A DNA stretch of 64,000 nucleotides from Acidimicrobiia bacterium (GCA_965215185.1 OZ244034.1:448001-512000), one strand, 5' to 3'. Counted from the first letter of the stretch, positions 1 through 19,213 are shown. Notes: generated by a model not told the origin, from the sequence alone. Made by a program: numbers and translations.

Positions 1-484
1 GGGACAGTTCATGCTGCCCGAGCATGTGGAGCACATAGGACTGGTCCTTGTCCAGGTCCACTCCACGTCGCAGCTTCCATCGGCCTGCCTCCCGGCTGAC
101 CCGCGCGTAGTGGCCGGTCACTAAAAGGTCGTAGTCCAGCCGGGCGGCCTCTTCCAAAAGAATCGAGAACTTGATGGAGCGGTTGCACTCAACGCACGGA
201 TTGGGGGTCCGACCGTTGCGGTAGGCATTCACGAAAGGGTCCACCACTGCCTCGGCGAAGTCATCGGTGTAGTCGAAGACGTAATAGGGTATATCCAGCA
301 CAGCGGCAACCCGGCGGGCGTCCTCGGAGTCGGACACGGTGCAGCACCCGTGAGTGGGAGCCTGGCCGCCCGGACCCTCCCATAGCTTGAGAGTTACCCC
401 GATCACCTCGTGCCCTTCCCGCTCCATAAGCGCGGCCGCCACCGAGGAATCCACCCCACCGCTCATGGCGGCCAGCACCCTCAT
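1..484 (-). CDS. mnmA: tRNA-specific 2-thiouridylase, N-terminal part (runs off the window)
   Basis: The minus strand from ATG 484 reads MRVLAAMSGGVDSS, then GCCTVSDSEDARRVA and GRTPNPCVECNRSIKF. Its start overlaps the stop of the cysteine desulfurase (ATGA). Confidence 0.95.
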   Translation of the reverse strand, partial: MRVLAAMSGGVDSSVAAALMEREGHEVIGVTLKLWEGPGGQAPTHGCCTVSDSEDARRVAAVLDIPYYVFDYTDDFAEAVVDPFVNAYRNGRTPNPCVECNRSIKFSILLEEAARLDYDLLVTGHYARVSREAGRWKLRRGVDLDKDQSYVLHMLGQHELS

Positions 485-1614
485 AGCAGGCCCTCCAACG
501 CTCTCAGAGTCAGCTCGGCGGCGCGGTCGCCATCGGCGGGACGGGTGGTCCATCCAAATGAGAAACGGACGCTTGATCGGGCTCCGGAGTCGGAAATCCC
601 CATGGCCGCCAGCACATGGGAGACCCGGGCCGCCCCTGATTGACAGGAGGACCCGGCCGAAGCAGCCAGTCCCAGCCGGTCGAGGCGGACCAGCAGGGTC
701 TGGTTGGCCACTCCCGGAAAGCGCAGGTGAGAATGATGAATCGTTCGGACGGGTTGCGAGGTGATGGCCAAGCCGGGCACCTTCTCCAACAACGCCGCCT
801 CGAATCTGCGGCGCGCCTCCCTCACCTCCCGGTGAAAACGCTCACGGTCCGACCCCGCCAGTTCCATGGCCCGCGCCATGCCGACCGCCCCCAACACGTT
901 GTGGGTTCCTGACCGGCGGCCCAACTCCTGTCCTCCGCCGTGCGCCACCGGCTCCAGCCCCACGCCGTCCCGTACATACAGCATGCCCACTCCGGGGGGA
1001 CCGCCGAACTTGTGCGCAGCCAAGGAAAGAAGATCCACTCCCAACTCATCCACCCGCAGTTCTTCGGAGACGAATGCCTGCACCGCATCGGTGTGGACAA
1101 GGGCATTGGATCCCGCTCGGTCGCGAACCGCCTCGGCGATCTTTCGCACCGGCTGGCGGGCGCCGGTCTCGTTGTTGGCCGCCATAACCGACACCACCGC
1201 CGTCTCAGGAGTGACCGCCTCCGCCACCTCGCAGGGATCAACCATGCCATCGCGGTCCACTCCCACCCTGGTGACAGAGCATCCCAGGAGCCCAAGGAAT
1301 CCGACGGAACTCAAGACCGCCTCGTGTTCCACCATAGAAGTGACCACCCCTCCCCGCCTTCCGCCTGCCAGAGCCGCTCCCTTCACCGCCAGATTGTCAG
1401 ACTCGGTTCCACCACTTGTGAAGACCACCTCCAGGGGACGGCAGTGCAATACCGCCGCAATGCGCTCCCTGGCCTCCTCCAACGCATTCTTGGCAGCACG
1501 GGCCGGAGCATGAAACCCGGTGGGGTTGCCCCACCCACGGTCGGCCAAACCCGACATTGCCTCCCAGACCTGGGGACGAATCGGAGTGGTGGCGGCATGG
1601 TCAAGGTAAAGCAT
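481..1614 (-). CDS. iscS: Cysteine desulfurase (IscS/NifS class V aminotransferase)
   Basis: Motifs YLDHAATTP, FTSGGTESDN, HTDAVQ, AHKFGGP (PLP Lys), RSGT and SAGSSC; adjacent to mnmA. Start placed at MLYLDH; the ORF track extends to 1632. Confidence 0.92.
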   Translation of the reverse strand: MLYLDHAATTPIRPQVWEAMSGLADRGWGNPTGFHAPARAAKNALEEARERIAAVLHCRPLEVVFTSGGTESDNLAVKGAALAGGRRGGVVTSMVEHEAVLSSVGFLGLLGCSVTRVGVDRDGMVDPCEVAEAVTPETAVVSVMAANNETGARQPVRKIAEAVRDRAGSNALVHTDAVQAFVSEELRVDELGVDLLSLAAHKFGGPPGVGMLYVRDGVGLEPVAHGGGQELGRRSGTHNVLGAVGMARAMELAGSDRERFHREVREARRRFEAALLEKVPGLAITSQPVRTIHHSHLRFPGVANQTLLVRLDRLGLAASAGSSCQSGAARVSHVLAAMGISDSGARSSVRFSFGWTTRPADGDRAAELTLRALEGLL

Positions 1615-1966
1615 GGAAAACCTGTTCATCAAATTATGGGTCCGTCCGGTCTATTTTCCCAGAGTTGATGGTGATCGATTGACTTCAAAGGGGCAAGTCG
1701 AGTAGCGCTCCGGTCAACCGTTGAGCGACGTTGCGAGATCTTCGTCATGCTATACCGCTGCCAGGACCGAGGGACACGACATCATCTGCCCCATTGAGAA
1801 GGTTAGACGTGTCGGCGGTTCAATCAGGTTCGGGTCCGGCCGTGAGCGGGCTGTTTTCTACCTGCTGACTGCCGGTGGACTCCCTGCCAGAATGGAGTGA
1901 GTCGAGGGAGGTGTGGCGCTCCCTCGACTCTGTATTTACAAGCGTCCGAGGAGGGGCGGGCGGCAG

Positions 1967-3586
1967 CTAATTCCCTGAATCGGTTTCCACTGTCTGTACG
2001 GAATCGGCGGCTAAGGCGGCATGGGAGAGCCCGGCTGCGTTACCTGCCCTGTCAAAAATGCTGCCCCCATTCAACGCCAGGCTGTTGGCGCTTACGCCGA
2101 TTCCGTCGGAGTCGGCATCGCCTCTTTGGATTTGATACTCGAAAACCATGTCGTTGTTGAAGCGCCGGTTCGGATTGGTTTCGGGTCGGAGCAGGGCATG
2201 CCGTATCGTTCCACCGACATCCAGTTCGAGTTGGAGGTCACCGGCTTTGGTCACCGGTTCGCTGAAGACCATTTCTACCCTGATGAACTCCCCGACTCTG
2301 TAGGCCTCCCTGTTTCCCGGCCGGGACGTGATGTAAATGCCTGAGATAGTGGGTGGAGCCGTGTCGATCTTGTGATCCGGTAGATGCCCGGTGGTCGGAA
2401 AGTGCTTCAGGTACTCTACATCGGCGCCCTTTGCCTTGATGTTGCCGCTCCCTATCACCGCGGTGGCTCCATAGGGAATCATGATGCCCCTGGTATCCAT
2501 ATCGCCTGGTTGGACGGCATAGCCGAACACCAGAGTGTCAGTGCCGGAGCCTCTGAGGTACACGGATTCTCTCCAGGCTTCTGCCCAGTTGGAACCATGG
2601 AGTCCGACGTACAGGGCCAAGCCCACGTCTCCTTCAACCACCACGTCGATGTCGAAGTTGAGGGAGATCTCGATTATCTGGTTGGCCCGATATGCCTCCC
2701 ATCCGTCCGGTGGAATCGAGGTGACCCCGACATTCATCACATAGGGTCTTCCATTCACTTTGTGGATGGAGGCATCTTTGATACCCGAGTGCACGTAATC
2801 GATCGGTACGTCTGTTCCCTTCGCATATATGTTCCCGCTGAATCCGCGGCTTGGGTTGTGATTTCTACCAACGGCGGCACTGCTGACAGTGATGCCGTCA
2901 AGGTCCCGGTCGACTGGCTGTACTTGATAGCGGAAGATCAGAAACCGGCCCCCCGAACCCTGGTGGTATCTCGCCCCTCTCAAAGTGCCACTGGCGCCCT
3001 CACCCAAGTAGAGGTGTATCAGAGCGTCTCCTCTCGCTTCCACTTCCGCTTCCTGGTCAAGGGTCACCCTGACGTCGATGCTCTCTCCGGTGCGGTAGGT
3101 GTCCCCTCTGATAGGCACGGAGGTGATTTCTACATCCGTGATCCTCGGCGCATCGTCATCATCGATTGTGATCACACAACTGTGAAACGAGCCTCCGAAC
3201 TGGGCGCCGAGTTCAAACGTCTCGTCATGTTCGGGTACCGCGTCGTCCTTCGTCATTACCGGAATCCATACGGTGTCGCTGTCTCCTTGACTGGTCATTT
3301 TGATCCTGTCATAGGGGACGAAGTCGTCGGTGTCGGCAGTGTGGTGGCTGTGGTAGCTGTACACGAACACCTGGATCTTGTGGTACCCGGGCCATTGAAG
3401 TCCCATGAAGGCTGATTCGCCCTCCGAGATCGGGTCAGGACATATCGGGATGGGATCCGGCACCGCATAGGCGAGAGACGGCGAAACAGGCATCACCGCC
3501 AGAAGGGCGAAGAGTACCGCGGCGGCTATCCACGTTGCGCTAAGTCTGCCTCGCCGCTGTCCGAACAAGGGTGCTGCACCTTTCAT
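1967..3586 (-). CDS. Secreted repeat protein: signal peptide, Calx-beta-like domain, three Ig-like repeats (putative adhesin)
   Basis: Signal peptide ending AYA; EHDETFEL...VITIDDDD Calx-beta-like motif; three repeats with GE.I.V...F...V...G.L.L...GSG...L.F.Y.VQ..D.D..GI; SD GGAGG upstream. Confidence 0.8.
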   Translation of the reverse strand: MKGAAPLFGQRRGRLSATWIAAAVLFALLAVMPVSPSLAYAVPDPIPICPDPISEGESAFMGLQWPGYHKIQVFVYSYHSHHTADTDDFVPYDRIKMTSQGDSDTVWIPVMTKDDAVPEHDETFELGAQFGGSFHSCVITIDDDDAPRITDVEITSVPIRGDTYRTGESIDVRVTLDQEAEVEARGDALIHLYLGEGASGTLRGARYHQGSGGRFLIFRYQVQPVDRDLDGITVSSAAVGRNHNPSRGFSGNIYAKGTDVPIDYVHSGIKDASIHKVNGRPYVMNVGVTSIPPDGWEAYRANQIIEISLNFDIDVVVEGDVGLALYVGLHGSNWAEAWRESVYLRGSGTDTLVFGYAVQPGDMDTRGIMIPYGATAVIGSGNIKAKGADVEYLKHFPTTGHLPDHKIDTAPPTISGIYITSRPGNREAYRVGEFIRVEMVFSEPVTKAGDLQLELDVGGTIRHALLRPETNPNRRFNNDMVFEYQIQRGDADSDGIGVSANSLALNGGSIFDRAGNAAGLSHAALAADSVQTVETDSGN

Positions 3587-3700
3587 CTGTTGCCTCCTAC
3601 TCCTACTTGGTTCCTACCGCGGTCAGGGTCCAGAGCGCCCGACGCATAGAATGGGTCAACGGTCATAGTGATGACCGGGACACGATTTGTGCGTCTGTGT

Positions 3701-5332
3701 CTAGTCCTCACGAGAGGTATCCACTCTGTGGGCTGAGTCGGCCGGTAAGGTCCCGTGGCTGAGGCCTGCGGCGTTGCCGGCGCTGTCATGGATGCTGCCT
3801 CCGTTAAGTCTCAGGCTGTTGGCACTGATACCGATGCCGTCTGTATCGGTGTCGCCCTCCTGTACGGCATAACGGAAAACCATCGTGTCCCCGTAGCTTC
3901 GCTCCTGGGTGACAGGGGCCTGCAGTTGCGCCCTCCGCGTCACTCCGCCGATGTCCAAGTCCAGTTGCAGATCTCCGCTGATGGTGACCTTTTCGCTGAA
4001 GGCCACTTCAACCTTGACCAGTTCGCCGGCGTCGTAAGCTTCACTGTTCCGAGGTTGTGATTTGAAGTTGATCGACGAGATGGTGGGCGGGGCCGTATCG
4101 ATCTTGTGGTCCGGTAAATGTCCCGTGCCCCAAAAGTACGGATACCGTTCCACATCCGTTCCCTTGGCTTTGATTTTTCCATCCCCATAGAAGCCGTTTC
4201 CAGGGCTTCCAAAACCTATCATGACGCCGTTTCGGTCCATGTTGCCCGGCCTGACGGTGTAGCCGAACACCAGTGTGTCGGTTCCGGATCCCCTTATGTA
4301 CCGTGCGTGTCTCCTCGCTGCATCCCAGTTGTCGCCGTTGAAACCGACGTACAACCCCAATGAGACGTCACCTTCCACCTCCACCTCGATGTTGAACCGC
4401 ATAGAGGCTTCAATAACCTGATTGACGCGGTAGGCATCCCATCCTCCCGGTGGCGCGGAGATGATGCGGGGATCTATGACCACGGGCCGGCCGTCAACCT
4501 GGTGGCGGGACGAATCCCCGATACCGGGGTGGGTGTAGTCGACCTGCACGTCCGTTCCCTGGGCGATAATCTTTCCGCTGAAGCCGTAGGCGGGGCTACG
4601 ATCCGCGTCCACGCCGGCGCTGCTGACGCTGACGCCATTGGTATCCCTATCGATCGCCTGCACCGTGTATCTGAAGGTCAGCGTCCTGGTCCCCGAGCCT
4701 CGGCGGTATCTTGCCCCTCGCCAGGTGTGGTCGCTGCCATCACCCACATATAGACCCAGCACAGGACTCCCTTCCACCTCAACCTCTTGGTCAAAGGTCA
4801 CCGCCACAGTGATGCTCTCACCAGCGATGTAAGCGTTTCCTACGGCCGGGGTTGATGTGATTACCACGCTCGTCACTTCGGGGGTGTCGTCGTCGAGAAT
4901 CGTGACCACACAACCGTGCCATGTGCCGTTCACCTCAAAACCGATGGAGAAGGTCTCGTCGTATTCTGGCGAATAGTCTTCTCTTGTTTCTACTGGTACC
5001 CGCACAGTGTCTTCGTCTGGGTCGCTGGTAATCGTTTCGCCGTCGTAGGGGATGTAGTCATCGCCGTCGGCCGTGGAGGCACTGTGGTCAGTGGAAACAC
5101 TCACTGAGACCGATCTGGCGCCTGGATCACGTATCTGCATGAAGGCCGTGTGACCCTCCCGGATAGAAGCCGGACACACCACATACATCTTGCTGTGATC
5201 CGCCAAGGCCGGAGGCGCAGAGGTCAGGGCAAGAAGCATCACCAATGGCAGGATGGTGAGAGCGCCGGCGGCACTGCTCTTTCCTGTTGGTCTGCCCCAC
5301 CGCCATCGGAACATTTGCGCTATTCCTTTCAT
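3701..5332 (-). CDS. Secreted repeat protein, tandem paralog of 1967..3586
   Basis: Same architecture and colinear sequence (e.g. shared TGHLPDHKIDTAPPTIS and DxAGNAAGLSH); signal peptide ending ALA; SD AGGAG. Confidence 0.8.
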   Translation of the reverse strand: MKGIAQMFRWRWGRPTGKSSAAGALTILPLVMLLALTSAPPALADHSKMYVVCPASIREGHTAFMQIRDPGARSVSVSVSTDHSASTADGDDYIPYDGETITSDPDEDTVRVPVETREDYSPEYDETFSIGFEVNGTWHGCVVTILDDDTPEVTSVVITSTPAVGNAYIAGESITVAVTFDQEVEVEGSPVLGLYVGDGSDHTWRGARYRRGSGTRTLTFRYTVQAIDRDTNGVSVSSAGVDADRSPAYGFSGKIIAQGTDVQVDYTHPGIGDSSRHQVDGRPVVIDPRIISAPPGGWDAYRVNQVIEASMRFNIEVEVEGDVSLGLYVGFNGDNWDAARRHARYIRGSGTDTLVFGYTVRPGNMDRNGVMIGFGSPGNGFYGDGKIKAKGTDVERYPYFWGTGHLPDHKIDTAPPTISSINFKSQPRNSEAYDAGELVKVEVAFSEKVTISGDLQLDLDIGGVTRRAQLQAPVTQERSYGDTMVFRYAVQEGDTDTDGIGISANSLRLNGGSIHDSAGNAAGLSHGTLPADSAHRVDTSRED

Positions 5333-5436
5333 CTCCTGTCTCCTGTCGCTGCCTGCTTGCTGTCTTTGTCGCTACCTGATGCTTCTTCGTTCTTTCATCT
5401 CTCAGCTCCAATCACGACCCGGCGCCCTTTCGATCC

Positions 5437-5868
5437 CTACCTCCACGTCTCTGTTTCCACCTCGCAGGTCGTCAGGCTGGCTGCCCGGACCTGACAGCGG
5501 GAACCGATGGCCGTAGCGAGTCGCTGATCACCGGTCACGAGATCGCACCGCAGCGCCTCGGCCAGGGCGATATAGCAGGCTTCCCGGGTTGTCGCATGAG
5601 CCCACAGCGAGAAGGCTCGAGGTAGAAGCGGTCGAGTAGGGCACGAGGACATGGGAAGGTCGTCGAGGTCCTTGATGGCCGTGCGGCAGCGTTCAGCGAG
5701 TAGAGCCCCTCTCAGCCACTGCTGACGCAGGAGATCTACCGTTTCGACGTAAGCCACATCGGGGACAAAGACGGCTGTCGACTCGGCAAAAGCCTTCCTA
5801 GCGGCCTGACCAGTTGACCCCCCGTCGGTCAGCAGGCTGACCAGCAGGGAGGCGTCGGCGACAATCAC
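5437..5868 (-). CDS. PIN-domain (VapC-like) toxin
   Basis: GTG start overlaps the antitoxin stop (GTGA). Reads MIVADASLLV...E...EACYIALAEALRCDLVTGDQRLA, a typical VapC pattern except that the usual DAxY Asp is Glu. Confidence 0.85.
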   Translation of the reverse strand: MIVADASLLVSLLTDGGSTGQAARKAFAESTAVFVPDVAYVETVDLLRQQWLRGALLAERCRTAIKDLDDLPMSSCPTRPLLPRAFSLWAHATTREACYIALAEALRCDLVTGDQRLATAIGSRCQVRAASLTTCEVETETWR

Positions 5869-6098
5869 GTCTGCTTCCGCCTTCCCTGTTCCAGGTCGCG
5901 GACGACTATTTCCATGTCCACCTTTGCGAGGCTGCGGTTCTCTATCCGCTTCAACACCTCGTCCATGGTGGGTTTTTGGGCCAGGGCGGTCAGTTCTTTC
6001 AGCAGGTATTGCTGCAGGGACTGCCCTCTGGTCTTGGCCCGGTGCTTGAGTTGAAGGTGAAGCTCGTTGGGAACTTCCCTTATCAGTATGGACTTCAT
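5865..6098 (-). CDS. Ribbon-helix-helix (FitA-like) antitoxin, 77 aa
   Basis: MKSILIREVPNELHLQLKHRAKTRGQSLQQYLLKEL fits the RHH pattern; coupled to the PIN gene; GATAAT -10-like hexamer 8 nt before the ATG. Confidence 0.85.
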   Translation of the reverse strand: MKSILIREVPNELHLQLKHRAKTRGQSLQQYLLKELTALAQKPTMDEVLKRIENRSLAKVDMEIVVRDLEQGRRKQT

Positions 6099-6224
6099 TG
6101 ACAACAATTATCAAGTAGTCGCGAAATAATGCTGGGGTATTAATAACCGAATGCGTTTGATAAAGGCGTCGCATAGATATTTGGAAGTGGTATTAAGAGC
6201 CCGGTCCCAGAAACTGAGTTCCGC

Positions 6225-6313
6225 TTGAGACTTCAGCAGACGGATGTATTCGCCGTCAAGGGCATGACCTGTGCCTCATGCGACAACGGGTGGAGCATGC
6301 CATCATGCAGAGG
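6225..6313 (+). pseudogene. Truncated, frameshifted HMA (copZ/copA N-terminal) relic
   Basis: TTG-RLQQTDVFAVKGMTCASC, then a 1-nt deletion, then QRVEHAIMQR. Colinear with the copA start at 8555 ([29 protein letters not shown]). Confidence 0.8.
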
Positions 6314-6411
6314 TGTTCCCCTCACCCAGGATGTCTTGGGGATCCGGGCATAGTGGCCGGTAAACAACTGGCCGCAGGCGGTTCGGGCCGCGCCTGCCAT
6401 AAAATGGCGAC

Positions 6412-7947
6412 ATGAAGGTTCCTCTCACCATCCGCGACCACCTCGACCGGGCCTTGGCCGTGTACCCCGACCGGGTCGCCTTCGTCGACGAGCCCGACCA
6501 GCCCGCCCCATCGATGGGGGATGTGACCTTCTCGCGTCTGGGAGAGTTGGCAGACGCCACCGGAGCTGGCCTAGACGCGTTGGGCGTGCCCGTAGGTGGG
6601 CGCGTCGCCATGGTGTCGCACAACGCCGGCCGCCTGCTCACCTCCTTCTGGGGCGTGAGCGGCAACGGCCGCATCTTCGTGCCCGTCAACTTCCGCCTCA
6701 GCACCGACGAGGTGACATACATCGTCGAGCACAGCGGCGCCGATGTGTTGCTGGTCGATCCCGAACTGGCCGACACGCTGGCGCCCATCGAGTGCCGCCA
6801 CAAGTTCGTGCTCGGCACCGAGTCCGACGAGGCCATGTTCCGCTTCGGCTCGGCCCCTCGGCCCTGGACGCCCGACGAGGACGCGGCCGCAGTTATCAAC
6901 TACACCTCCGGCACGACCGCCAGGCCCAAGGGCGTGCAGCAGACGCACCGCAGCCTCTGGCTCAACGCGGCGGTGTTCGGCTGGCACACGACGGTCAGCG
7001 ACCGCGACAATTACCTACACACCCTGCCCATGTTCCACTGCAACGGCTGGGGGATGCCCTATGCGCTGGTGGGCATGGGGGCCAAACAGGTGGTACTGCG
7101 CAAGGTGGACGGCGCAGAGATTCTGCGCCGGGTGGACGAGCACGGCATCACGATTATGTGCGGTGCGCCCGCGGTGGTGGCGGCCATCCTCGCCGCCGCC
7201 GCCGAATGGGAGGGAGCCATTCCCGGGGCGGGCCGCACCCGCATCGTGGTGGCCGGTGCGCCACCACCCACCCGCACCATCGAGCGGGTGGAAACGGAGT
7301 TGAACTGGGAGTTCATCCATCTCTATGGCCTTACCGAGACAGCGCCGCTGCTCACCATGAACCGTAGACGGGCCGAATGGGACCACCTGTCACCGGGCGA
7401 GAGGGCCCGGAAGCTGGCCAGCCAGGGTGTGCCCGGTCTGGGCGTGCGCATGACCGTGAGCCCAGACGGCGAGTTCCTGGCCCGCACCAACCATGTGCTC
7501 GAGGGCTACTGGGAGCAGCCCGACGCCACCGCGGCGGCCATCGTAGACGGCTGGTTCCACACCGGCGACGGGGGATACGCCGACGCCGACGGCTATTACA
7601 CCATCACCGACCGCAAGAAGGATGTCATTATCTCCGGCGGCGAGAACGTGTCGTCCATCGAGGTGGAGGACGCTCTGTTCTCTCACCCGGCCGTGGCCGA
7701 AGTGGCCGTTATTGGCGTTCCCCACCCCAAGTGGGGCGAAACGGTCAAGGCACTGGTGGTGCCGGCCCCCGGCGCTGAGGTGACGCCCGAGGATCTCATC
7801 GCCCACTGCCGGGATCTCATCGCCCACTACAAGTGCCCAACCTCGGTGGAGATCCGTACGGAACTGGCCCGCACCGCCACCGGCAAGCTCCAGAAGTTCA
7901 AGCTGCGGGCCCCCTACTGGGAGGGCATGGAGAAGGCCGTCAACTAG
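6412..7947 (+). CDS. AMP-binding acyl-CoA synthetase (fatty-acid/aryl-CoA ligase family)
   Basis: Motifs YTSGTTARPKG, YGLTET, GWFHTGD, DRKKDVIISGGENVSSIEVE and RTATGKLQK. Confidence 0.93.
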   Translation: MKVPLTIRDHLDRALAVYPDRVAFVDEPDQPAPSMGDVTFSRLGELADATGAGLDALGVPVGGRVAMVSHNAGRLLTSFWGVSGNGRIFVPVNFRLSTDEVTYIVEHSGADVLLVDPELADTLAPIECRHKFVLGTESDEAMFRFGSAPRPWTPDEDAAAVINYTSGTTARPKGVQQTHRSLWLNAAVFGWHTTVSDRDNYLHTLPMFHCNGWGMPYALVGMGAKQVVLRKVDGAEILRRVDEHGITIMCGAPAVVAAILAAAAEWEGAIPGAGRTRIVVAGAPPPTRTIERVETELNWEFIHLYGLTETAPLLTMNRRRAEWDHLSPGERARKLASQGVPGLGVRMTVSPDGEFLARTNHVLEGYWEQPDATAAAIVDGWFHTGDGGYADADGYYTITDRKKDVIISGGENVSSIEVEDALFSHPAVAEVAVIGVPHPKWGETVKALVVPAPGAEVTPEDLIAHCRDLIAHYKCPTSVEIRTELARTATGKLQKFKLRAPYWEGMEKAVN

Positions 7948-8056
7948 CTGTCCTACCAAGGCTTCCTGAGCTTCATGGCCAATACCGAAAAAGACTGTGG
8001 GGTGGAAGCAAGTGTCGGTAGTGGGTGCCGGCGGGGCTTCTAGAATGGGAGTTAAC

Positions 8057-8278
8057 ATGGCTTCTACTAAGACGGATGGTTTTTCGGTCGGTGGCATGAC
8101 CTGCGGTTCATGTGCACAACGGGTGGAGAACGCTCTTTTGCAGAGGGAGGACGTGACGGAGGCTTCGGTCGATCTGGCGGGTGCCAAGGTGCGGGTTACT
8201 CACGATGCGGGCACAGATCTGTCAGTGCTTTTTGATGCTGTGAGAGCCCTTGGATATGAGGTGGGTCCGCTCCTTTAG
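8057..8278 (+). CDS. copZ: Copper chaperone (HMA domain), copy 1
   Basis: GMTCGSC metal motif, 73 aa, upstream of a P1B ATPase. Confidence 0.85.
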   Translation: MASTKTDGFSVGGMTCGSCAQRVENALLQREDVTEASVDLAGAKVRVTHDAGTDLSVLFDAVRALGYEVGPLL

Positions 8279-8305
8279 CGGGCCCTTACTATTGGAGGTT
8301 TGACT

Positions 8306-8527
8306 GTGGCTATTACTAAGACGGATCGTTTTTCGGTCGGTGGCATGACCTGCGGTTCATGTGCACAACGGGTGGAGAACGCTCTTTTGCAGAGGGAGGA
8401 CGTGACGGAGGCTTCGGTCGATCTGGCGGGTGCCAAGGTGCGGGTTACTCACGATGCGGGCACAGATCTGTCAGTGCTTTTTGATGCTGTGAGAGCCCTT
8501 GGATATGAGGTGGGTCCGCTCCTTTAG
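8306..8527 (+). CDS. copZ: Copper chaperone (HMA domain), copy 2
   Basis: Near-identical to copy 1 at the DNA level; GGAGG SD then GTG; 73 aa. Confidence 0.85.
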   Translation: MAITKTDRFSVGGMTCGSCAQRVENALLQREDVTEASVDLAGAKVRVTHDAGTDLSVLFDAVRALGYEVGPLL

Positions 8528-8554
8528 CGGGCCCTTACCATTTTGGAGGTTGGC

Positions 8555-10723
8555 TTGGGCTCCACTCAGACGGATGTCTTTTCGGTCGGTGGGATGACTT
8601 GCGCTTCGTGTGCACAACGGGTGGAGAACGCTCTTTTGCAGAGGGAGGACGTGACGGAGGCTTCGGTCAACCTGATGGGTGCCAAGGTGCGGGTTACTCA
8701 CGATGCAGGCACAGATATCGCATTGCTTTTTGATGCCGTGAAAGCGATCGGATATCAGGCGGCGCCGCTGCCATCTGATCCGCTCGGTCCGGATATTGAG
8801 GAACCCTACTACGAGGAGGCCAAAAGACAGCGGCGGGTTTTTGCAGCATCGGCGCTGTTTGCAGTTCCGTTAATGGTCATCTCCATGCTGGGGCTCGACC
8901 AGCCGGTCTGGTTGGTGGTGCAAGGGGTGCTGGCCGCGGCAGTGGTGCTCTGGTGGGGGCGCCAATTCCATAGGATTGCCTGGCTGCGGGTGAAGTTGGG
9001 CCAAGCCAACATGGACACCCTGGTTTCGGTCGGATCTCTGACTGCCCTCGGATATTCGACCTGGGCAGCTTTCAGTGGCCAGGCGGTCTACTTCGAGACG
9101 GCGGGGATGATCGTCACCCTGATTCTTCTGGGCCGCTTTCTCGAGGCTCGCGCCAAGGGGCGGGCTTCGCAAGCGGTTGCAAAGCTGGTGGAACTTGGGT
9201 TTAGCGCCTCGGTGCGGGTGATGGGTGCGGACCGCGAATATGAAATCTCCCAGGACCAACTCCAAGTGGATGATCTGGTGGTGGTGCTGGCGGGGGAGAA
9301 GATACCGGCTGACGGGGTTGTAACCAGCGGGCACTCCGCAGTGGACGAGTCGATGCTCACCGGGGAGTCCCTGCCGGTGGAGAGATCCGTGGGCGACCCA
9401 GTGTTCTGTGGCACGATCAACCAGATGGGACGGTTGGTGTTCAGGGCGGAACGAGTGGGAGTTGACACGACGCTTTTCCAGATCGTGAAGATGGTGGAGG
9501 AGGTGCAATCGTCCAAGCCACCCATTCAAAGGCTGGCCGACCGGGTGTCTTCAGTTTTTGTGCCGGTGGTGATAGTGCTGGCCATTCTTACCTTCGCAGG
9601 GTGGCTGGTGGCCGGAGGTGACCTGTGGGAAGCCATCAGAAACGGGGTTGCGGTGCTGATCATTGCCTGCCCCTGCGCCTTGGGGCTGGCGACTCCCACC
9701 GCCATCATGGCAGGAAGCGGCCGAGGGGCCGAGCTGGGGGTGCTGTTCAAGAACGCCGAGGTTTTCGAGCGTACCCGGGAAGTTGACACGGTGGTGTTTG
9801 ACAAGACCGGCACTTTGACGGAAGGCAAGATGACCCTGACCGATGTCTCGGCCGATAATCCGGGCCGGTTCCTGCGGCTGGTGGGTTCGGTGGAGGGGGG
9901 TAGTTCCCATCCCATCGGTCAGGCGGTGGCGAAGGGCGCACAACAGCGTGGAGTGGAGATTGTCTCGCCCGACGAGGTGGAGACAATACCGGGCCGGGGG
10001 ATTGTAGGTGTGGTGGACGGCGTCCGGGTTTGGGTGGGTAAGCCGGACTTCCTGGCCGAGGCGGGACTAGAGACCAGCGCCGATCACTTGCAGACCATGC
10101 GGGCCCTGGAAGACGAGGCCAAGACCGCCTTCTTGGCGGGCTGGGAGGGCGATATCCGGGGTGTCCTGGCGGTGTCCGACACTCTTCGCCCGACGGCTGC
10201 CGAAGCCATTTCCCGACTGCGAGACATGGGTGTTACGTTGGCTCTGTTGACAGGAGACAACGCACGGTCCGCCTCGGTAATGGGCCAGCGCCTCGGGATC
10301 GACCAGGTCAAGGCCGATGTCCTGCCGGCCGACAAGGCTCGTGAGATAGAACGACTGAAGGAAGAGGGAATGGTGGTCGCCTTCGTGGGCGACGGGATCA
10401 ACGACGCGGTTGCGCTGGCGGCCGCGGATCTGGGGATAGCCATCGGGACCGGAACCGATGTGGCAGTGGAGGCGGGCGATATTGCTCTGATGAGCGGGGA
10501 CCCCTTGGGAGTGCCCACCTCCCTGGCGCTGGCACGAGCCACTTACCGGACAATCATTTCCAATTTGGTCTGGGCGTTCGGATATAACGTGGCTGCCATT
10601 CCCTTGGCGGCAGCCGGCGTGTTGAATCCAATGGTGGCTGCTGGGGCCATGGCCTTCTCAAGTGTGTCGGTGGTTACCAACTCATTACGTTTGCGCCGGT
10701 TCAAAGCGCCTACTGCACTCTGA
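8555..10723 (+). CDS. copA: Cu(I)-translocating P1B-1 ATPase
   Basis: N-terminal GMTCASC, TGES, CPC, DKTGT, HP, GDGIND, YN and MAFSS transmembrane metal motifs. Confidence 0.95.
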
Positions 10724-11114
10724 AAGTCCAGGTGAAATCCCCTACTTCGGGTAAACCGTAGGTCTTTTCCCACTCCACCCGGATGGTGTGCTCACCCACC
10801 TCCCAGCGACTCATGAGCAGACTCCGTTCGCCTGGTCTCCACCGGTAGATCCCCACGCCCTCGGTAAATGAAAGCTCGGATGAGGGTATCGGATACCCGT
10901 TGACGTAGATGCGTGCCTCATACCCCACCTCCAAGTCGACTTCCAGGCTGCTTTGCATCGGGACCGCGTCGTAGGGGCTGGGGGATACACCTTCCAAGGG
11001 AGGAGGCAGGGTCAAAGGGTCGCCGCCTCGTCCGAACACGTAGCAGAGCGACAGGGTGGCCACACTCAGAAGTCCCAAACCCACATATATCAACCGGTAA
11101 CGCACGCCGGGCAA
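10710..11114 (-). CDS. Hypothetical membrane-anchored protein with an Ig-like fold
   Basis: N-terminal TM helix; beta-rich domain ending FTWTFRVQ. Confidence 0.65.
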
Positions 11115-11522
11115 TTGTACGCACTGCAGGAAGTCACTAAAAGAGGGGGTCTTGCCGTCCTGTCTTGTCGGTTCGTTGGATTGCCGGTTGGCATTGCGCT
11201 GATTTGGTGGGTGTGCGGGATGACTCCTGCCTAGCGGGGCGAGAGGGGCCCAACGTCTTTGTCTCTCTTTTTCTCGATAGGTAGTTCAGCCACCGGTAGG
11301 CGGTTTGAAGGGACACACCCTGCCCGTATGAGCGGGGACCCACCGTCCAATCCCTCCGGATTGGCCTCATCCCCAGCAACTTTCTCCCAAAACGGGGTCA
11401 ATCGTGCTTCGGACTATCCGCCAAGGGACTCCTCTGGATTGGCGGGTTTGGTTACCCACAAGTCAAACCGGGAGGCCCTTACTCATGCAGACATACCGTC
11501 AACAACGCCTCGGTGAATACAG

Positions 11523-14500
11523 CTAGTTGGCTTCCTCCTCGTCGAGGATATCGCAGTATTGGTCGGCTTCGCCTGTGCTGTGGGAGATCTCACGGGACCA
11601 TTCCCCGGGCCCGTTGGCATTGAACGCTCGAACCCGAATCCTGTAGGTGGTTCTTGTGTCGAGGCTGGTAATGGTGGTCGAGGTTGCGGCGCTGCCGTGT
11701 GGTTGGATCTGCCAGTCGCTGTAGGTCGGCCCGCCGTCGACGAGGTCTAGGCGTCGGTACTGAACTTCGTAATAGTCAATCGGTGCGCCGCCCTCGAACT
11801 CGGGCGCCTGCCATATCACCGTCATGCCTGTGTCGGCGGAGCCGTGGCCATCGGCAGGGCACACTGCCCGCGTCCGTTCCGGTTGCCCGGGGGGCGCCGC
11901 CGCCGGCCCGCCGTCGTCATCGGCGATTGTCAGGGTGATCTGAGAGGGTGTACCGATCACACACCCGTTGCGCTCGCATCCGGTGATGGTCACTGTGAGC
12001 GTGCTGTCGGGATTGCCCACCGTGTTCTCGGAGATCTGCACGACAGTGTCCCAGACATCAAACCTGGGCAGGCTAAACACGACTCTCGAGATCTGCCCCG
12101 AGGTCGGCACCAGAGGCGAGTAGTGGCGCCACTGGAAGGACAACTCCACATCGGCCCCGCCCGGTGCGGGCCCGCCGTCTTCAGCCGACGCCAAGATCCT
12201 GAACCATGCCCGCTCGCCCTCCTCGAAGGTAGAGCCGTCAAGCACCGTTCCGCCTATGCTGGCCGTCGAGTTGTCGGGAATCACCGTCCCATCCGGCACG
12301 CGTACCAGGGTCACAACCACCCGTTCCATCTCCTTCTCAGCGATCGGGACCGGAACTGCGCTGACGCCGTTGGCACCGTAGTCACCCCCGGCGACGGTGT
12401 GGGTGATGGTGGCAGAGCCATTCACATTATTGTTATCGTTCCCAGCTGTCACGGTCACCGTCTGTGGGATGTCCCAGTTTTCCGGCTGGAAGGTCAGGGC
12501 TTCCGACACTGAGATGTCAGCGTTGGTGGCTTCCTGCACCCGGGGGGTCACGGTGACGTCATCGGTCGGTTCGCTGTTCAGCACCGCGGTGTAGGCTGCG
12601 GAACCGCCTTCGTCGATCTGCAACGTCCCGGTCGGTTTGACGGTGACCCCCCTGGTGTCGTCATCCACGATTACCACGGTCGACCTGCATTCGGATCGAA
12701 TGCAAGGGTCTGCTGAGGAGTCGGCGGGGATCAAGCTGACTGCGCTCGGTATGCCAGGAGACTGTTGCAACCGTACCTCGAACTTCTCATCCTCTTCATC
12801 CAGGTCGTCTCCGACAATCTGGAGGGGCACTTGAACAGACCACACATATGAGTCTCCGTCGGCGATCCAGGCTCCCGTTGAACCTCCCTCAATCTCGACT
12901 ATGCGGGACAGGGTCTCATAGTCGTCAGGCGAGATGGCAGTGCCCTTGGCCGTCACTACCGAGACGTAAAAGCCGGAGAATGGCGGGGAAACGTCAGCCT
13001 TAGTCTCTGCGATCAGGCTGACTCCGTCCAACTGGCCGGTGCTCTCGCTGACGGTGTAGGAAGAGGAGTTGAACCGCACGGTTACGAGACTGTTGCCAAC
13101 ATACACCTGCACCGAAGCAGATGACGGATCGCCGATGTCGTGGAATTCGCCGTCGCCTACGGTGGCCGTCACCTGGCCGGTCGCCGCGTCCGGATCCCGG
13201 GTGGAGGTGCTGACCGTCAGCGTGGCCGAAGTCTGGTTGGCCGCAATGGTGACAGTGTGGCTCAGACTGGTGGGATCCAGGATTCCCAGTGATATCTCCA
13301 CCGGAACCTCCAGGTCGTCGATGGTGGCGATTTCCCGGGTGACGGTGAACGCTAGGTTGTCGATTCCCTGGAGGGCAGTCGGGCGATCCGCCGTGATCGT
13401 AACCACGCCGGAATGCAGGGTGTCGCCGTCCTCCGCGTCCTTCTCAGCCACCAGGACCGAATAAGCGGTGACGCCGCCCGACCCGTAGTCACCCCCGTCC
13501 ACGGTGTGGGTGACGGTGGCAGAGCCATTCACATCATTGTCGTCGGCCCCGGCCGTCACGGTCACACTCTGCGGCGTGTTCCAGTTCCGGGGAGTAAAAG
13601 TCAAAGTCTCCGACACCGAGATGTCAGCGTTGGCGGCCTCCTGCACCTGGGGCGTCACGGAGACATCCCCAGTCGGCTCGCTGTCCAGGACCACTCTGTA
13701 GGCCGCAGTGCCGCCCTCGTCGATCTGTAGGGTGCCGGTCGCTTTGACGGTGACCCCCCTGGTGTCGTCGTCCACGATTACCACGGTTGACCTGCAATTG
13801 GATCGACTGCAAGGGTTTGCTGAGGAGTCAGCCGGGACCAACTTGACCGTCCAAGGCAGCTGGGGGATACGCTGCAAAACGAGACGGAACGTCTCGTCCT
13901 CTTCATCCAGTTCGTCCCTGATGGGCCAAACAGGCACTTGGACCGACGACACGTAGGAGTCTCCGTCAGCCCTCCATCGACCCCTGGACTCTCCCTGAAC
14001 CAAAATTGTCCGAGAGAAGCCCCGGTAGTCAACATCCCCCCTGGCGGTGCCCTGCTCTGTGATCACCGCCACGCTGAGACTCTTATATGGCGCGGGAACG
14101 CCAGGGCTGGTACGGGCGACCACTTGCACCTCGTCTGTCGACCAACCGACGCTCTCGCTAACAGGAAGTGACGACGCTTTGAAACGCAGTGTGACGAGCC
14201 CACTGCCGATGTAGACCTGCACAGAGGCGGATGACGGATCACCGATGTCATGGAATTCCCCGTCACCTACGGTGGCAGTCGCTTCCCCCGTCTTCGCCCC
14301 AAGGGCGCGAGTGGCGGTGCTGATGGTCAGCTTGGCCGAGGTCTGATTGGCCGCAATGGTGACAGTGTGGCTAAGAAGGTCGGGCGCCACGATTCCCGGT
14401 GACACCTCCACGGGCACCCGCAGTTGGTTGGTCGTGGCGACTTCCCGGGTGACGGTGAATACCAGATCGTCGATTGCCAGGAGGGCCGTGGAACGATCGG

Positions 14501-14717
14501 CGGTGATGGTCACTGCACCGGAGTGCCGGGCGTCGCCATCCTGCGCCCGAGCACTAGTCGGGACTCCAACAATGGCCACCGCGATGGCGATGATCGCCAT
14601 CTTGCGGGCGAGGGTGGCAGGACCTCGGGCCGACACTCCAGCCGCTGTCGCCTGGCGGCGGGTCCAACGCATACGTCCTATCCGACTTGATCGAAGGAAC
14701 AGTTTTGAAATGATCAT
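11523..14717 (-). CDS. Large secreted Calx-beta repeat / fibronectin type III protein (putative adhesin)
   Basis: Signal peptide (ARA-Q); two ~369-aa modules with DELDEEDETFRLVL and DDLDEEDEKFEVRL Calx-beta motifs; C-terminal FN3 (W.AP...GG.PIDYYEVQYR...Y.IRVRAFNANGPGEWS). Confidence 0.85.
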   Translation of the reverse strand: MIISKLFLRSSRIGRMRWTRRQATAAGVSARGPATLARKMAIIAIAVAIVGVPTSARAQDGDARHSGAVTITADRSTALLAIDDLVFTVTREVATTNQLRVPVEVSPGIVAPDLLSHTVTIAANQTSAKLTISTATRALGAKTGEATATVGDGEFHDIGDPSSASVQVYIGSGLVTLRFKASSLPVSESVGWSTDEVQVVARTSPGVPAPYKSLSVAVITEQGTARGDVDYRGFSRTILVQGESRGRWRADGDSYVSSVQVPVWPIRDELDEEDETFRLVLQRIPQLPWTVKLVPADSSANPCSRSNCRSTVVIVDDDTRGVTVKATGTLQIDEGGTAAYRVVLDSEPTGDVSVTPQVQEAANADISVSETLTFTPRNWNTPQSVTVTAGADDNDVNGSATVTHTVDGGDYGSGGVTAYSVLVAEKDAEDGDTLHSGVVTITADRPTALQGIDNLAFTVTREIATIDDLEVPVEISLGILDPTSLSHTVTIAANQTSATLTVSTSTRDPDAATGQVTATVGDGEFHDIGDPSSASVQVYVGNSLVTVRFNSSSYTVSESTGQLDGVSLIAETKADVSPPFSGFYVSVVTAKGTAISPDDYETLSRIVEIEGGSTGAWIADGDSYVWSVQVPLQIVGDDLDEEDEKFEVRLQQSPGIPSAVSLIPADSSADPCIRSECRSTVVIVDDDTRGVTVKPTGTLQIDEGGSAAYTAVLNSEPTDDVTVTPRVQEATNADISVSEALTFQPENWDIPQTVTVTAGNDNNNVNGSATITHTVAGGDYGANGVSAVPVPIAEKEMERVVVTLVRVPDGTVIPDNSTASIGGTVLDGSTFEEGERAWFRILASAEDGGPAPGGADVELSFQWRHYSPLVPTSGQISRVVFSLPRFDVWDTVVQISENTVGNPDSTLTVTITGCERNGCVIGTPSQITLTIADDDGGPAAAPPGQPERTRAVCPADGHGSADTGMTVIWQAPEFEGGAPIDYYEVQYRRLDLVDGGPTYSDWQIQPHGSAATSTTITSLDTRTTYRIRVRAFNANGPGEWSREISHSTGEADQYCDILDEEEAN
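12320..14525 (-). repeat. Intragenic tandem duplication, period 1107 bp
   Basis: cggtgacccccctggtgtcgtc begins at both 12641 and 13748; the protein modules HSG.VTITADR... to ...AEK are repeated. Boundaries are approximate. Confidence 0.85.
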
Positions 14718-14947
14718 TTCCGATGGTGCCTTTCCTCATCCAGATCGCGAACGACGATCTTGGGGTGAACCTGTTCGAGGCTGCGTGGCGGTCTTCGCCT
14801 CAATGCCTCTGTCATGGTGGATCTGTCGGCCAAGGCGGTCAGCTCTTGCAGCGGGCATGGCTGGAGGGGCTGTCTCTCGCTCTTGGCGCAGTGGCTGGAT
14901 CGCACGTGGAGTTCGCTATGAACTTTCCTCTTGTACGTGGACCTCAC
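14714..14947 (-). CDS. Diverged homolog of the RHH antitoxin (77 codons), coupled to the adhesin start
   Basis: Gap-free alignment to 5865..6098 (ELTALA...TM.E.L.R...RSL..V...IVVRDL); same length; same GATAAT-N8-start promoter layout; stop overlaps the adhesin ATG (ATGA). It may be a decayed gene. Confidence 0.65.
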   Translation of the reverse strand: MRSTYKRKVHSELHVRSSHCAKSERQPLQPCPLQELTALADRSTMTEALRRRPPRSLEQVHPKIVVRDLDEERHHRK

Positions 14948-15126
14948 TGCTATCAATTATCAGAACGCTTAAAACTTATGTAGGGGTAGTTTTCCCGGGT
15001 GATTCGATCACTGCGATGGTGGGTGAGTTCAGATCTGCAGGGCGATCCTGGCTGCTGTGCGGCGGGTGCTTTTGGCTGGCTCAGAACTTGCGCTTCAAGG
15101 TCTGCTTGCTGAGGGTGTTCTTTCGG

Positions 15127-15565
15127 TCAGGTCTCACTTCTGGTTGGTTCCCATGGATTCAGGATGTCAAGTTGGGGGAACCGCTGGAAGTATTGGGTGT
15201 TACGAGTCACCATCACCATGTTGTGGGCTATGGCGGTGGCGGCGATGAGGGCATCGGTGGTGGGGGCGGGATCAGGTATGTGCAAGGCTGCAGCAATGCG
15301 AGCAACCCGGGCATCGACCGAGAGGGTTCTTTGGGCGAAAATGTCGCACACGTCGTTGTCGAGCCCACTTCGGAGGGTGGCGCCTGCCACCGGGTCTCGG
15401 CGCTCGGCAAGCAGTACTCCCATTTCGAGTTCCTGGAGGGTCATAACCGAGATATAGGTGAGATCGGTTTCCACTCCGCTCACCCAAGCCATGACTTGCG
15501 GGTTAGCCTTTTCGACTCTTATCTTTGTTGATTTCGGATACGACATTTGTGTCTAGAAGAAACAT
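15127..15565 (-). pseudogene. PIN/VapC (FitB-like) toxin with a frameshift near codon 13
   Basis: ATG 15565 gives MFLLDTNVVSEI, then an early stop. The remainder (KIRVEKANPQVMAW...DALIAATAIAHNMVMVTRN..F) lies in another frame, with one extra base near 15530. Confidence 0.8.
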
Positions 15566-15828
15566 CAGTCGAAGGACGCTGGGTGAGCTACATCTCTCAA
15601 TCTGGGAATCTCTAGTTCAATGTCCCCTATCCCTGGTGTTCTGCACAGTGTGTCTATGAGGGTCGGTTTGTCTTGCACGATTTCCATGTACTGGTCGTAA
15701 CTCAACAGGACATGCGATGGCCGGTTGCGGTCCGTGATATAGACCGGCCCCTTTTGTGCGGCTCTCTTGGCTGCGCCGGTCCCTTGGTTGAATTCCCGGC
15801 TACTCATGATTTGTGCCGGATTCCGCAT
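15565..15828 (-). CDS. Phd/YefM family antitoxin
   Basis: MSSREFNQGTGAAKRAAQKGPVYITDRNRPSHVLLSY; TGATG overlap with the PIN gene. Confidence 0.9.
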   Translation of the reverse strand: MRNPAQIMSSREFNQGTGAAKRAAQKGPVYITDRNRPSHVLLSYDQYMEIVQDKPTLIDTLCRTPGIGDIELEIPRLRDVAHPASFD

Positions 15829-15940
15829 CGGGTTTGCACTCCTATACCCCGCTTGTATGTATGTTGCTACATTGCACCCCCCTCTCCTGGGCGTGCAGAG
15901 TCAAATTAAGGACAATTTGTAGGCTGGATAAGCGGCTAGC

Positions 15941-17095
15941 GTGGTGGTGATGCGGATCAATCCGGTGCTGAGGAAGATGGGAGCCTATCCGATCGCGGCT
16001 ATCCAGGATCGGGCCCGGGACATGAGAGATGCTGGGGAACGGCTCATCGACTTCTCTATCGGTGATCCCCGAGAGCCCACACCTGCGTTCATACCGGAGG
16101 CTTTGCGTGACGCTGTTCCCGAGATATCTCAGTACCCGACCACCCGCGGCCTGCGGGTTCTTCGAGAGGCGATTGCAAGATACGTGCTCCGTCGGTTCGG
16201 AAGGCAGGTGGACCCAGATACCCAGGTGCTGCCCACCACCGGTTCCAAAGAGGCGATCTTCTCCACTCCCTTCGCATTTGTGGATTCCCGTCGAGAAGAG
16301 GTGGTGATATGGCCCACGCCCGGGTATCCCATCTACGGTCGGGGCGCCCTGCTGGCGGGAGCGGTCGGGTATCCAGTTCGCTTGGAGGGTGATTTCCTGT
16401 TCCGGGCCTCTGATGTGCCTGATCAGGTTTGGGCCCGCGCTGCCTTGGTGTGGACCAACTCGCCGCACAATCCGGCCGGGTCGGTTACGAGTCGTTCGGA
16501 CATCGAAGCCTTCCACCGCAAATGCAGGGAATTCGATGTTCTGTTGTGTGCCGACGAGTGCTACGTGGATCTCTACGAAGGTGATCCGCCCTCCTCGGTG
16601 TTGGAGGTGGCTGATTCCAACTTGTCGGGGGTGGTCAGCTATCTGAGCCTTTCCAAGCGCTCGGGTATGACCGGCTATCGCTCGGCGGCCATGGTTGGAG
16701 ACGCTCAGGCGATCAAGGCGCTGGCTTCCCTGCGCACCTCCACCGGGACCGCACCCCCCGAGTTCACGCAGATGGCAGCGGTGGCCGCCTGGTCGGACGA
16801 CGCCCATGTGGTGGAGCGGCGGCGGATATTTGCAGAGAAGCGGGCAATCCTGCGGGAGGTCTTCGGTGGGATGGGATATCGGACGGTGGAGTCAACGGCC
16901 GGTTTGTACCTATGGGTGGAGGTGAGGGATGACATGGAGGCGACCACCCGCCTTTTGGAGGCAGGGGTGGTGGTCTCTCCGGGTAGGGCGTTCGGTGCTG
17001 GGGGAGAAGGTTATATAAGGTTGGCGCTGGTTCCCAGCCCCGAGGAATGTAAGCAAGCCGTGGAGGTGTTGGAAAAATGTCTGACCAAGATGTGA
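15941..17095 (+). CDS. dapC: Succinyldiaminopimelate aminotransferase (class I/II PLP)
   Basis: Motifs NSPHNPAG, DECY and SLSKRSGMTGYR; first gene of the dapD-dapE operon. The start may be ATG 15950. Confidence 0.85.
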   Translation: MVVMRINPVLRKMGAYPIAAIQDRARDMRDAGERLIDFSIGDPREPTPAFIPEALRDAVPEISQYPTTRGLRVLREAIARYVLRRFGRQVDPDTQVLPTTGSKEAIFSTPFAFVDSRREEVVIWPTPGYPIYGRGALLAGAVGYPVRLEGDFLFRASDVPDQVWARAALVWTNSPHNPAGSVTSRSDIEAFHRKCREFDVLLCADECYVDLYEGDPPSSVLEVADSNLSGVVSYLSLSKRSGMTGYRSAAMVGDAQAIKALASLRTSTGTAPPEFTQMAAVAAWSDDAHVVERRRIFAEKRAILREVFGGMGYRTVESTAGLYLWVEVRDDMEATTRLLEAGVVVSPGRAFGAGGEGYIRLALVPSPEECKQAVEVLEKCLTKM

Positions 17096-18935: not shown

Positions 18936-19213
18936 GCCAGCGACCATCCTCAATAGACGCTTCGGAACTAGTCTCGCTTGATCTGATCACGGTAGGAAGG
19001 GTCAATTTTGATCTTTATTCACAGCAGATCGGGGCGTCCTTTGCGAAGGTAACCCGGTTCGATAGCATGGTGGGAGGAAGCCCCACCAACATCGCCATCG
19101 GCACGGCACGGTTGGGATTGCGATCGGCGGCTTTCACCGCGGTGGGGGAGAACCAGGTGGGGGACCTGATCCTGTACCAACTGGACGTTCCAACCGGCAT
19201 CCTCCGGTTTTAA
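18932..19213 (+). pseudogene. iolC: Truncated 5-dehydro-2-deoxygluconokinase (PfkB family N-terminus only)
   Basis: DLITVGRVNFDLY..QIGA.F..V..F...VGGSPTNIAIGTARLGLRSA.FTAVG is the IolC N-terminus, but the ORF ends after 93 aa. Confidence 0.75.

Follow-up and report, generated by a model that had tools for sequence, protein, structure and literature searches.

The window analyzed here is a stretch of 64,000 nucleotides (nt), G000:C1:448001-512000, from the 3.12-Mb single-contig genome G000 of an Acidimicrobiia bacterium. It contains two loci in which a toxin-antitoxin (TA) antitoxin gene, or an open reading frame (ORF) resembling one, stands ahead of genes for secreted repeat proteins, all read from the same strand (Table 1). 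In locus 1, the antitoxin gene AT1 is followed by the PIN-domain toxin gene PIN1 and by two repeat-protein genes, adhA and adhB; this order had been given in the initial annotation of the stretch and was reproduced, with the qualification that the word "adhesin", used there for the repeat proteins, names a putative function. In locus 2, the order is Phd2, PIN2, a spacer of 180 nt, the ORF AT2, and the long ORF of adhC.

Table 1. Features of the two loci, with positions counted from the first letter of the window.
Feature	Position	Strand	Description
AT1	5865..6098	-	234 nt, 77 aa, ATG start; intact FitA-like ribbon-helix-helix antitoxin (VapB-type), by sequence
AT1 palindrome	6099..6113	-	imperfect TGATA-ATTGT-TGTCA, 0 nt before the AT1 ATG
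PIN1	5437..5868	-	143 aa, predicted PIN-domain toxin (VapC-type); Pfam PF01850, 32.6 bits (cut-off 23.6)
adhA	3701..5332	-	putative secreted repeat protein, 543 aa; 104-nt spacer after PIN1
adhB	1967..3586	-	539 aa, tandem paralog of adhA; 114-nt spacer after adhA
Phd2 antitoxin	15565..15828	-	intact; Pfam match
PIN2 toxin	15127..15546	-	frameshifted; Pfam match; pairs with Phd2, just upstream of AT2
AT2 palindrome/-10 copy	14948..14962	-	TGATA-ATTGA-TAGCA, directly before the AT2 GTG
AT2	14714..14947	-	234 nt, open frame of 77 codons, GTG start; decayed orphan paralog of AT1
Junction	14673..14717	-	toxin start codon and ~2 codons copied out of the TA module (ATGATCATT); the remainder, as far as the adhC start, is unrelated
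adhC	11523..14672	-	putative secreted Calx-beta/fn3 protein; likely start ATG 14672, 1049 aa; longest ORF reaches 14717

Judged from its sequence, locus 1 is an intact type II TA pair, composed of a FitA-like ribbon-helix-helix (RHH) antitoxin and a PIN ribonuclease. It lies at the margin of a variable islet that is flanked by conserved housekeeping genes. AT1 matches the Pfam family FitA-like_RHH (PF22513) with 30.7 bits (cut-off 27), the profile of its family matches the PDB entry 7e4j, titled "Antitoxin", with E 4.7e-8, and pairs of AT1 orthologs show a ratio of nonsynonymous to synonymous substitution (dN/dS) of 0.20–0.31. The GTG start of PIN1 and the AT1 stop codon overlap by 4 nt (GTGA). 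In PIN1 the acidic residues D5, E42, and D114 are invariant, and column 96 is occupied by Glu in PIN1 and by Asp in the 7 other aligned sequences; we take these four acidic positions to be catalytic, and the Glu at residue 96 could make the toxin an attenuated one. RHH antitoxins of the AT1 family form dimers that bind a palindrome in their promoter and repress their own transcription, while their C-terminus neutralizes the toxin. A palindrome with the layout TGATA-N5-TATCA immediately precedes the start codon in AT1 of G000, in the AT1 gene of G010 (another genome of the genus), in an AT1 relic of G013 (a further one), and in AT2. In AT1 it is a putative RHH operator combined with a putative -10 element, GATAAT, a motif that lies 8 nt before the start of both AT1 and AT2. 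No Shine-Dalgarno sequence is present ahead of the AT1 or the AT2 start. The consensus promoter and terminator scans of the coding strand gave nothing useful, and the Rfam and tRNA scans of positions 1..20000 of the window gave nothing.

AT2 aligns with AT1 without gaps, with 157 of the 234 nucleotides and 35 of the 77 residues identical, and the homology is far above chance in a tblastn search within the genome (E = 1e-13). The observation in the initial annotation of two homologous ORFs of 234 nt with a common TGATAATTG-N6-start layout (ATG in AT1, GTG in AT2) is therefore correct, as are the antitoxin origin proposed for the ORF of locus 2, its exact length with neither an indel nor an internal stop, and the replacements of SILIREVP by STYKRKVH and of QSLQQYLL by QPLQPCPL. 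By this comparison, AT2 descends from an RHH antitoxin gene. The similarity of the two regions begins ~35 nt ahead of the start codons and ends ~9 nt inside the toxin gene, and the palindromes match at 12 of 15 positions, a value that does not stand out from the 67% background of the ORFs. The genome holds no further copy of AT1/AT2 beyond these two (tblastn), and a genome-wide search for TGATAATTG and the palindrome revealed no additional relic.

The stop codon of AT2 overlaps, as ATGA, the ATG that opens the longest ORF of this region (11523..14717, 1064 aa). The beginning of the junction, ATGATCATT, matches ATGATCGTT of G010 PIN1 at 8 of 9 positions, so the ATG overlapping the AT2 stop is, on the evidence of the alignment, the start codon of the toxin itself, brought in with the copy, which explains why the long adhC ORF opens exactly at the position of the toxin start. 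Past ~9 nt, no significant identity between the junction and three PIN1 genes remains (p 0.06–0.19, genomic background). On the same p values, a derivation of the opening 15 codons of the long adhC ORF from the N-terminus of PIN was rejected as unproven. The protein record derived from public gene calls contains exactly the 1049-aa form of adhC, starting at 14672 with MRWTRRQ, and the 1064-aa form is absent; ten members of the adhC cluster come from other assemblies (94–100% identity), and the full-length ones begin with MRWTRRQ as well. An AGGA motif, GGATAGGA, precedes ATG 14672, and translation of adhC from this ATG of its own is likely. The statement that an adhesin has taken the position of the toxin is thus right in part: the toxin has vacated its place, and the 1064-aa ORF does overlap the AT2 stop, but the recorded adhC start lies 41 nt downstream of that stop and its overlapping ATG.

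The degree of decay of AT2 was assessed within its protein family. AT1 as a query against ~5.8 billion proteins gave 40 matches, all of PF22513, and 27 of them, with near-duplicates dropped, were aligned with AT2. Of the 22 columns that are invariant among these homologs, all are preserved in AT1 and 10 in AT2; the losses include I6, P10, L17, R20, G25, S27, Q30, Y31, L32, P43, and I52, and also E53, a residue conserved in at least 90% of the family. When each of the 27 homologs is left out in turn, it retains every position tested (22/22), or 22/23 in the case of five. AT2 shares 33–39 of 77 residues with the 77-aa clade and 16–21 of 76 with the clade of 76–81 aa, and five prolines lie in its former helices. 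It has no match in Pfam (E<=0.01) or NCBIfam, no similar protein is found among the 5.8 billion, and the gene callers left AT2 uncalled in every assembly. Taking the profile and the invariant residues together, AT2 is outside the FitA-like RHH family.

The substitutions in AT2 look neutral from the comparison of AT1 and AT2 of G000 with AT1 of G007, G010, and G015 (all 234 nt). The pairwise dN/dS between AT2 and G000 AT1 is 0.70. On the AT2 branch it is 0.73 (bootstrap 2.5–97.5%: 0.37–1.66, from three-point branch lengths), a range which includes 1, and on the AT1 branches 0.31 (0.16–0.57). The differences between AT1 and AT2 are distributed over the three codon positions as 21/27/28, which fits a uniform distribution (p 0.57) but not the pooled pattern of the orthologs, 114/73/186 (chi-square p = 0.008).

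This decay can be compared with that in G007, where a dead remnant of the AT2-adhC junction occupies the same site on the chromosome and is 80% identical over 151 nt. What is left there is the 3' half of AT2 together with the first bases of adhC; the TGA stop and the ATG are lost, and an in-frame stop and a 1-nt deletion are present, while the 5' half of AT2, all of adhC, and Phd2-PIN2 are deleted. With AT1 as the outgroup, 72 sites can be polarized, and among them 13 derived states are shared by both genomes (including those that destroy I52 and E53), 6 are specific to G000, and 11 to G007. The shared states show that the toxin-less, degenerate AT2 is older than the split between G000 and G007, and the lineage-specific changes show that the G000 copy has since changed about as much as one that is certainly dead, so that its decay has gone on at close to the neutral rate. 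This remnant was the sole find in a search of 17 genomes of the genus for adhC and AT2, and among metagenome contigs a 23-nt junction pattern occurs in the G007 contig only. An adhC ortholog was found neither in 121 genomes of the family nor, with the N-terminal protein as a query, in metagenome contigs.

The open frame of AT2 is weak evidence for selection in this G+C-rich DNA. In neutral simulations of substitutions only, starting from an AT1-like ancestor with 40–77 changed sites, 20–41% of the sequences remain without an internal stop (P 0.20–0.41). Within positions 1..20000 of the window, 63 of the 79 ORFs of at least 77 aa lie outside the assigned gene frames, and two such non-genic ORFs overlap AT2 on the other strand.

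The lack of recurrence elsewhere of a pairing of RHH/PIN genes with adhesin genes, which the initial annotation had named as grounds for refuting its proposal, is what is observed outside the genus. Using one genome per species, 321 loci of the AT1 family were collected and 80 were kept. A PIN1 homolog directly follows the antitoxin in 78 of them (in 72 it is near full length), and a homolog of adhA, adhB, or adhC is present at a single one, the fragment in G010, from the same genus. At 34 of the kept loci the first downstream ORF on the same strand has at least 150 aa, and none of these 34 contains a Calx-beta, fn3, or Ig-like domain; transposases, an integrase, Fic, GNAT, and housekeeping enzymes are among them, and 15 are without a Pfam match. 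In the opposite direction, no AT1 or PIN1 was found by tblastn at the four loci outside the genus that have an adhA/B homolog with upstream DNA (L044, L046, L047, L049). The AT1-PIN1 family itself is widespread in Actinomycetota.

Within the genus, loci 1 and 2 fill two variable gaps of a common backbone, which consists of an aminotransferase, (an AMP ligase), copies of a heavy-metal-associated (HMA) domain with a P-type ATPase, a 131-aa membrane protein, PIN2-Phd2, and further genes. What these gaps contain varies with the species. AT1-PIN1 is intact in G010 and followed only by a 41-aa adhesin fragment. In G013, AT1 and PIN1 are broken relics, followed by an intact adhesin of 537 aa. In G015, AT1 is intact, PIN1 is cut after VIVADA (6 codons), and an HNH/DUF222 gene follows (L023:15115..16353, plus strand). 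In G007, AT1-PIN1 is intact and followed by a PIN-like fragment and a TnpB gene (NF040570, 124.8 bits; L021:2..1135, minus strand). The TA pair and the surface gene thus decay independently within the genus. The genes directly behind AT1 or AT1-PIN1 in G007 (TnpB family) and G015 (HNH/DUF222) are those of mobile elements. The second gap is occupied in other species by a DUF4143 ATPase or by ORFs without family assignment.

The decay of TA genes is general in the G000 genome, which holds only three PIN matches. PIN2 carries one additional nucleotide relative to G002, G006, and G015, near 15505 in an A-rich stretch, with the result that its first ~20 codons, including the N-terminal Asp of MFLLDTNV, are in another frame; in those three genomes PIN2 begins with MF/YLLDTNV. 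By sequence, Phd2-PIN2 is a second decaying TA pair in the region. Over 10259..15900, the PIN2 insertion site included, the DNA contigs X2 and X3 do not differ from the window, and one X5 contig spanning 13492..15351 has 8 differing letters and 21 gap letters somewhere in that span. The third PIN match (G000:C1:2314543-2314893, minus strand, outside the window) is truncated at the N-terminus (profile positions 23-118), has no antitoxin-like ORF beside it, and adjoins an ORF of 387 aa.

The repeat proteins of the two loci are of different kinds. The adhC protein matches Calx-beta with 34.3 bits (cut-off 27) and fn3 with 53.7 bits (cut-off 25), is not homologous to adhA or adhB, and contains two internal repeats of ~370 aa each, at about residues 60-430 and 430-800 in the numbering of the long ORF, with 79% identity along a DNA stretch of 239 nt. 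For adhA the best Calx-beta match has 21 bits, which is under the cut-off (27), and for adhB there is no match to Calx-beta, fn3, or an adhesin family in Pfam; the two proteins, 54–56% identical and encoded on the same strand, can be called Calx-beta-like at best. The adhA profile, searched against the sequences of the PDB, gave no match. Inspected by eye, the adh proteins, adhA included, have N-termini resembling signal peptides, and no C-terminus of the LPXTG type was seen. adhA has its own GGAG-rich Shine-Dalgarno sequence and adhB likewise has its own (GGAGTAGGAGG ahead of the ATG), a GGAGG-type motif being found directly before the ATG in adhA, in adhB, and in 3 of the 4 homologs read. 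Homologs of adhA/B with ~50% identity are present on contigs titled Chloroflexota/Dehalococcoidia (L047, L048), which suggests lateral transfer of this type of secreted repeat protein. A conserved pair of small genes (~71 aa and 100-183 aa, no Pfam match) lies downstream of the adhA/B homolog in L044-L046 and L048.

Two further observations concern the HMA genes near AT1. A fragment of an HMA gene, QTDVFAVKGMTCASC, is located between AT1 and the AMP ligase gene (~6240..6310, plus strand), and an HMA gene directly abuts AT1 in G010, G013, and G015; from this, the flanking DNA seems to have moved together with the TA-adhesin cassette. At ~8050..8760 (plus strand), three tandem copies of the HMA domain (~70 aa) precede the P-type ATPase gene (8543..10723). 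Copies 1 and 2 are nearly identical, the period of the DNA repeat is ~250 nt, and the third copy is apparently the N-terminus of the ATPase itself.

Building on the directly observed homology, decay statistics, synteny, and non-recurrence, we consider it likely that AT2 is a drifting orphan antitoxin relic and locus 1 an ordinary VapBC-type module in a variable islet, and that the adjacency of the TA genes to the surface-protein genes does not form a regulatory or translational unit. At locus 1, AT1 dimers would bind the TGATA-N5-TATCA-like palindrome, which overlaps the -10 element and the start codon, and repress their own promoter, and the C-terminus of AT1 would neutralize PIN1, as expected for the family. 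Locus 2 would be a paralog in which the antitoxin gene was copied together with the promoter-proximal region and the initial 2–3 toxin codons. The toxin would have been lost there, and the copy, already degenerate before G000 and G007 separated, would have drifted since then, with adhC probably translated from ATG 14672. The proximity of TA and surface genes may then reflect their common residence in accessory DNA visited by mobile elements, in which TA modules would persist as selfish or possibly stabilizing elements.

Several observations weigh against this interpretation. AT2 still has exactly 234 nt, a usable start, a stop codon, and no indel, and the start, the stop, and the open frame are all retained together in just 0.03–0.17 of the substitution-only simulations. 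Over an equal time the G007 copy gained one small indel and large deletions; from its rate of ~1 small indel per 11 lineage-specific substitutions, the probability of finding no indel in G000 AT2 is about 0.2, a suggestive value which is rough, as it derives from one observed event. The -10/palindrome block of AT2 is as intact as that of AT1, with one mismatch in the right arm of each. Terminator-like sites are absent from the coding strand between PIN1 and adhA and between AT2 and adhC, so co-transcription is possible. Both RHH copies are located directly upstream, on the same strand, of 2 of the 4 ORFs in the genome that match Calx-beta, a placement which is unlikely if random, although the copies are not independent. 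Finally, the adhC start relies on gene callers and a motif.

How the two genes came together is a separate matter. Rather than through local duplication of AT1, AT2-adhC may have been acquired by recombination with a related species where adhC stood as cargo behind AT1-PIN1, with the toxin deleted later; this account, which concerns the origin only and is compatible with AT2 being a drifting relic, is possible but somewhat doubtful. The cargo behind AT1-PIN1 does vary with the species (adhA/B, a single adhesin gene, TnpB, HNH/DUF222), the synonymous distance to G000 AT1 is similar for AT2 (pS 0.40) and for G010 AT1 (0.37), the HMA-gene fragment beside AT1 points to flanking DNA that moved along, and the adhA/B homologs on Chloroflexota/Dehalococcoidia-titled contigs fit a mobile cargo. 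However, no donor with the order AT-PIN-adhC was found, and the searches for an adhC ortholog described above returned none.

An alternative of a different nature, close to what the initial annotation had proposed, is that the promoter and the ORF have been exapted together. The fossil antitoxin promoter would fire and give a leaderless or nearly leaderless mRNA, the relic ORF would be kept open to provide ribosome cover (no Rho polarity) or re-initiation at adhC, and AT1, alone or with PIN1, would repress both palindromes from a distance of 9 kb, tying adhC and adhA/B to the TA status. The retained start, stop, and exact length of AT2, its preserved palindrome/-10 block (one arm mismatch, like AT1), the missing Shine-Dalgarno sequences, the missing terminator-like sites ahead of adhC and adhA, and the position of both RHH copies in front of Calx-beta-type genes in a genome with 3 PIN loci only are what such an arrangement would look like, and TA transcripts of M. 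tuberculosis are reported to be predominantly leaderless (PMC8485053). We nevertheless regard it as unlikely. The openness of AT2 and the conservation of the promoter block stay within the neutral expectation, the G000 copy has not been spared in comparison with the dead one of G007, and no gene caller reports AT2. The adhesin of G013 is intact behind a broken antitoxin and toxin, and the pairing is absent from the 78 family loci outside the genus. The idea that AT2 is kept as a leader for translational coupling, in particular, is not supported in view of the neutral-looking substitutions, the loss of more than half of the invariant residues, and the presence of a recorded adhC start with its own AGGA motif.

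A narrower version, in which the ORF serves as ribosome cover only, is less probable still. In that case the promoter/operator of the dead antitoxin would be recycled to drive a near-leaderless transcript for the 1049-aa adhC, and AT1 (with PIN1) would repress both palindromes, placing two unrelated surface-protein loci under one TA switch; the action of MqsA at csgD offers a mechanistic analogue that makes the required cross-repression plausible. The part of the fossil promoter in adhC transcription could in this case be a passive or even a selected one. If it were true, the locus would be a concrete case of TA promoter/operator reuse that wires surface-protein genes to a TA switch. As for AT2 being a neofunctionalized small protein (a spare antitoxin that no longer binds DNA and sequesters PIN1 through its C-terminal half, or a new basic regulator), the open frame, a C-terminal half closer to the nearest homolog (residues 44–77, 19/34) than the RHH half (20/43), and a dN/dS near or above 1, also expected under positive selection, are set against the loss in that same half of P43, I52, and E53, the prolines in the former helices, the same derived states in the dead G007 copy, and the lack of any similar protein among the 5.8 billion, which together make this highly improbable.

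Compared with known systems, locus 1 resembles the type II modules of VapBC/FitAB type in having the antitoxin first, a stop/start overlap of 4 nt, RHH and PIN matches above the cut-offs, a promoter palindrome, and a PIN partner at 78 of 80 family loci. It differs by E in place of D at one of the four acidic positions of PIN1 and otherwise in nothing categorical. TA modules stabilize integron cassettes and genomic islands, and the TA pair of locus 1 is similar to these in lying at the edge of a variable segment, with species-specific cargo and visits of transposase and HNH genes; it may have a stabilizing role of this kind. No integrase, attC, or att sites were seen at these loci, though no search was aimed at them.

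In the case of regulation outside the own operon, the MqsA antitoxin is reported to repress csgD and curli (PMC4894380), a finding disputed in another report (PMC6918082). The loci described here would be comparable to MqsA, as presented in the former, if AT1 bound the copied palindrome at a second promoter driving a surface gene; the second site would in this case not be an independent palindrome but the fossil left by a duplicated TA promoter. A close parallel to AT2 is found among orphan antitoxins and TA relics, with which it shares an antitoxin origin and the absence of the toxin, and G015, with AT1 intact and PIN1 cut after 6 codons, represents an earlier stage of toxin loss. In E. coli lineages orphan antitoxins are described as abundant and attributed in part to gene loss, and anti-addiction or trans-regulatory roles are suggested for them (PMC10790755); by that report, orphan antitoxins are a familiar and frequent product of TA decay. 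AT2 has decayed much further than the E. coli orphans of that study, for which at least 75% identity was required, as it does not match the model of its own family. The locus is a clear example of the decay of TA modules, in which loss of the toxin precedes the drift of the orphan antitoxin (through deletion, truncation, or frameshift; three separate cases in ~10 kb, and G015), and it illustrates that openness of a frame is no sign of selection where the DNA is rich in G+C.

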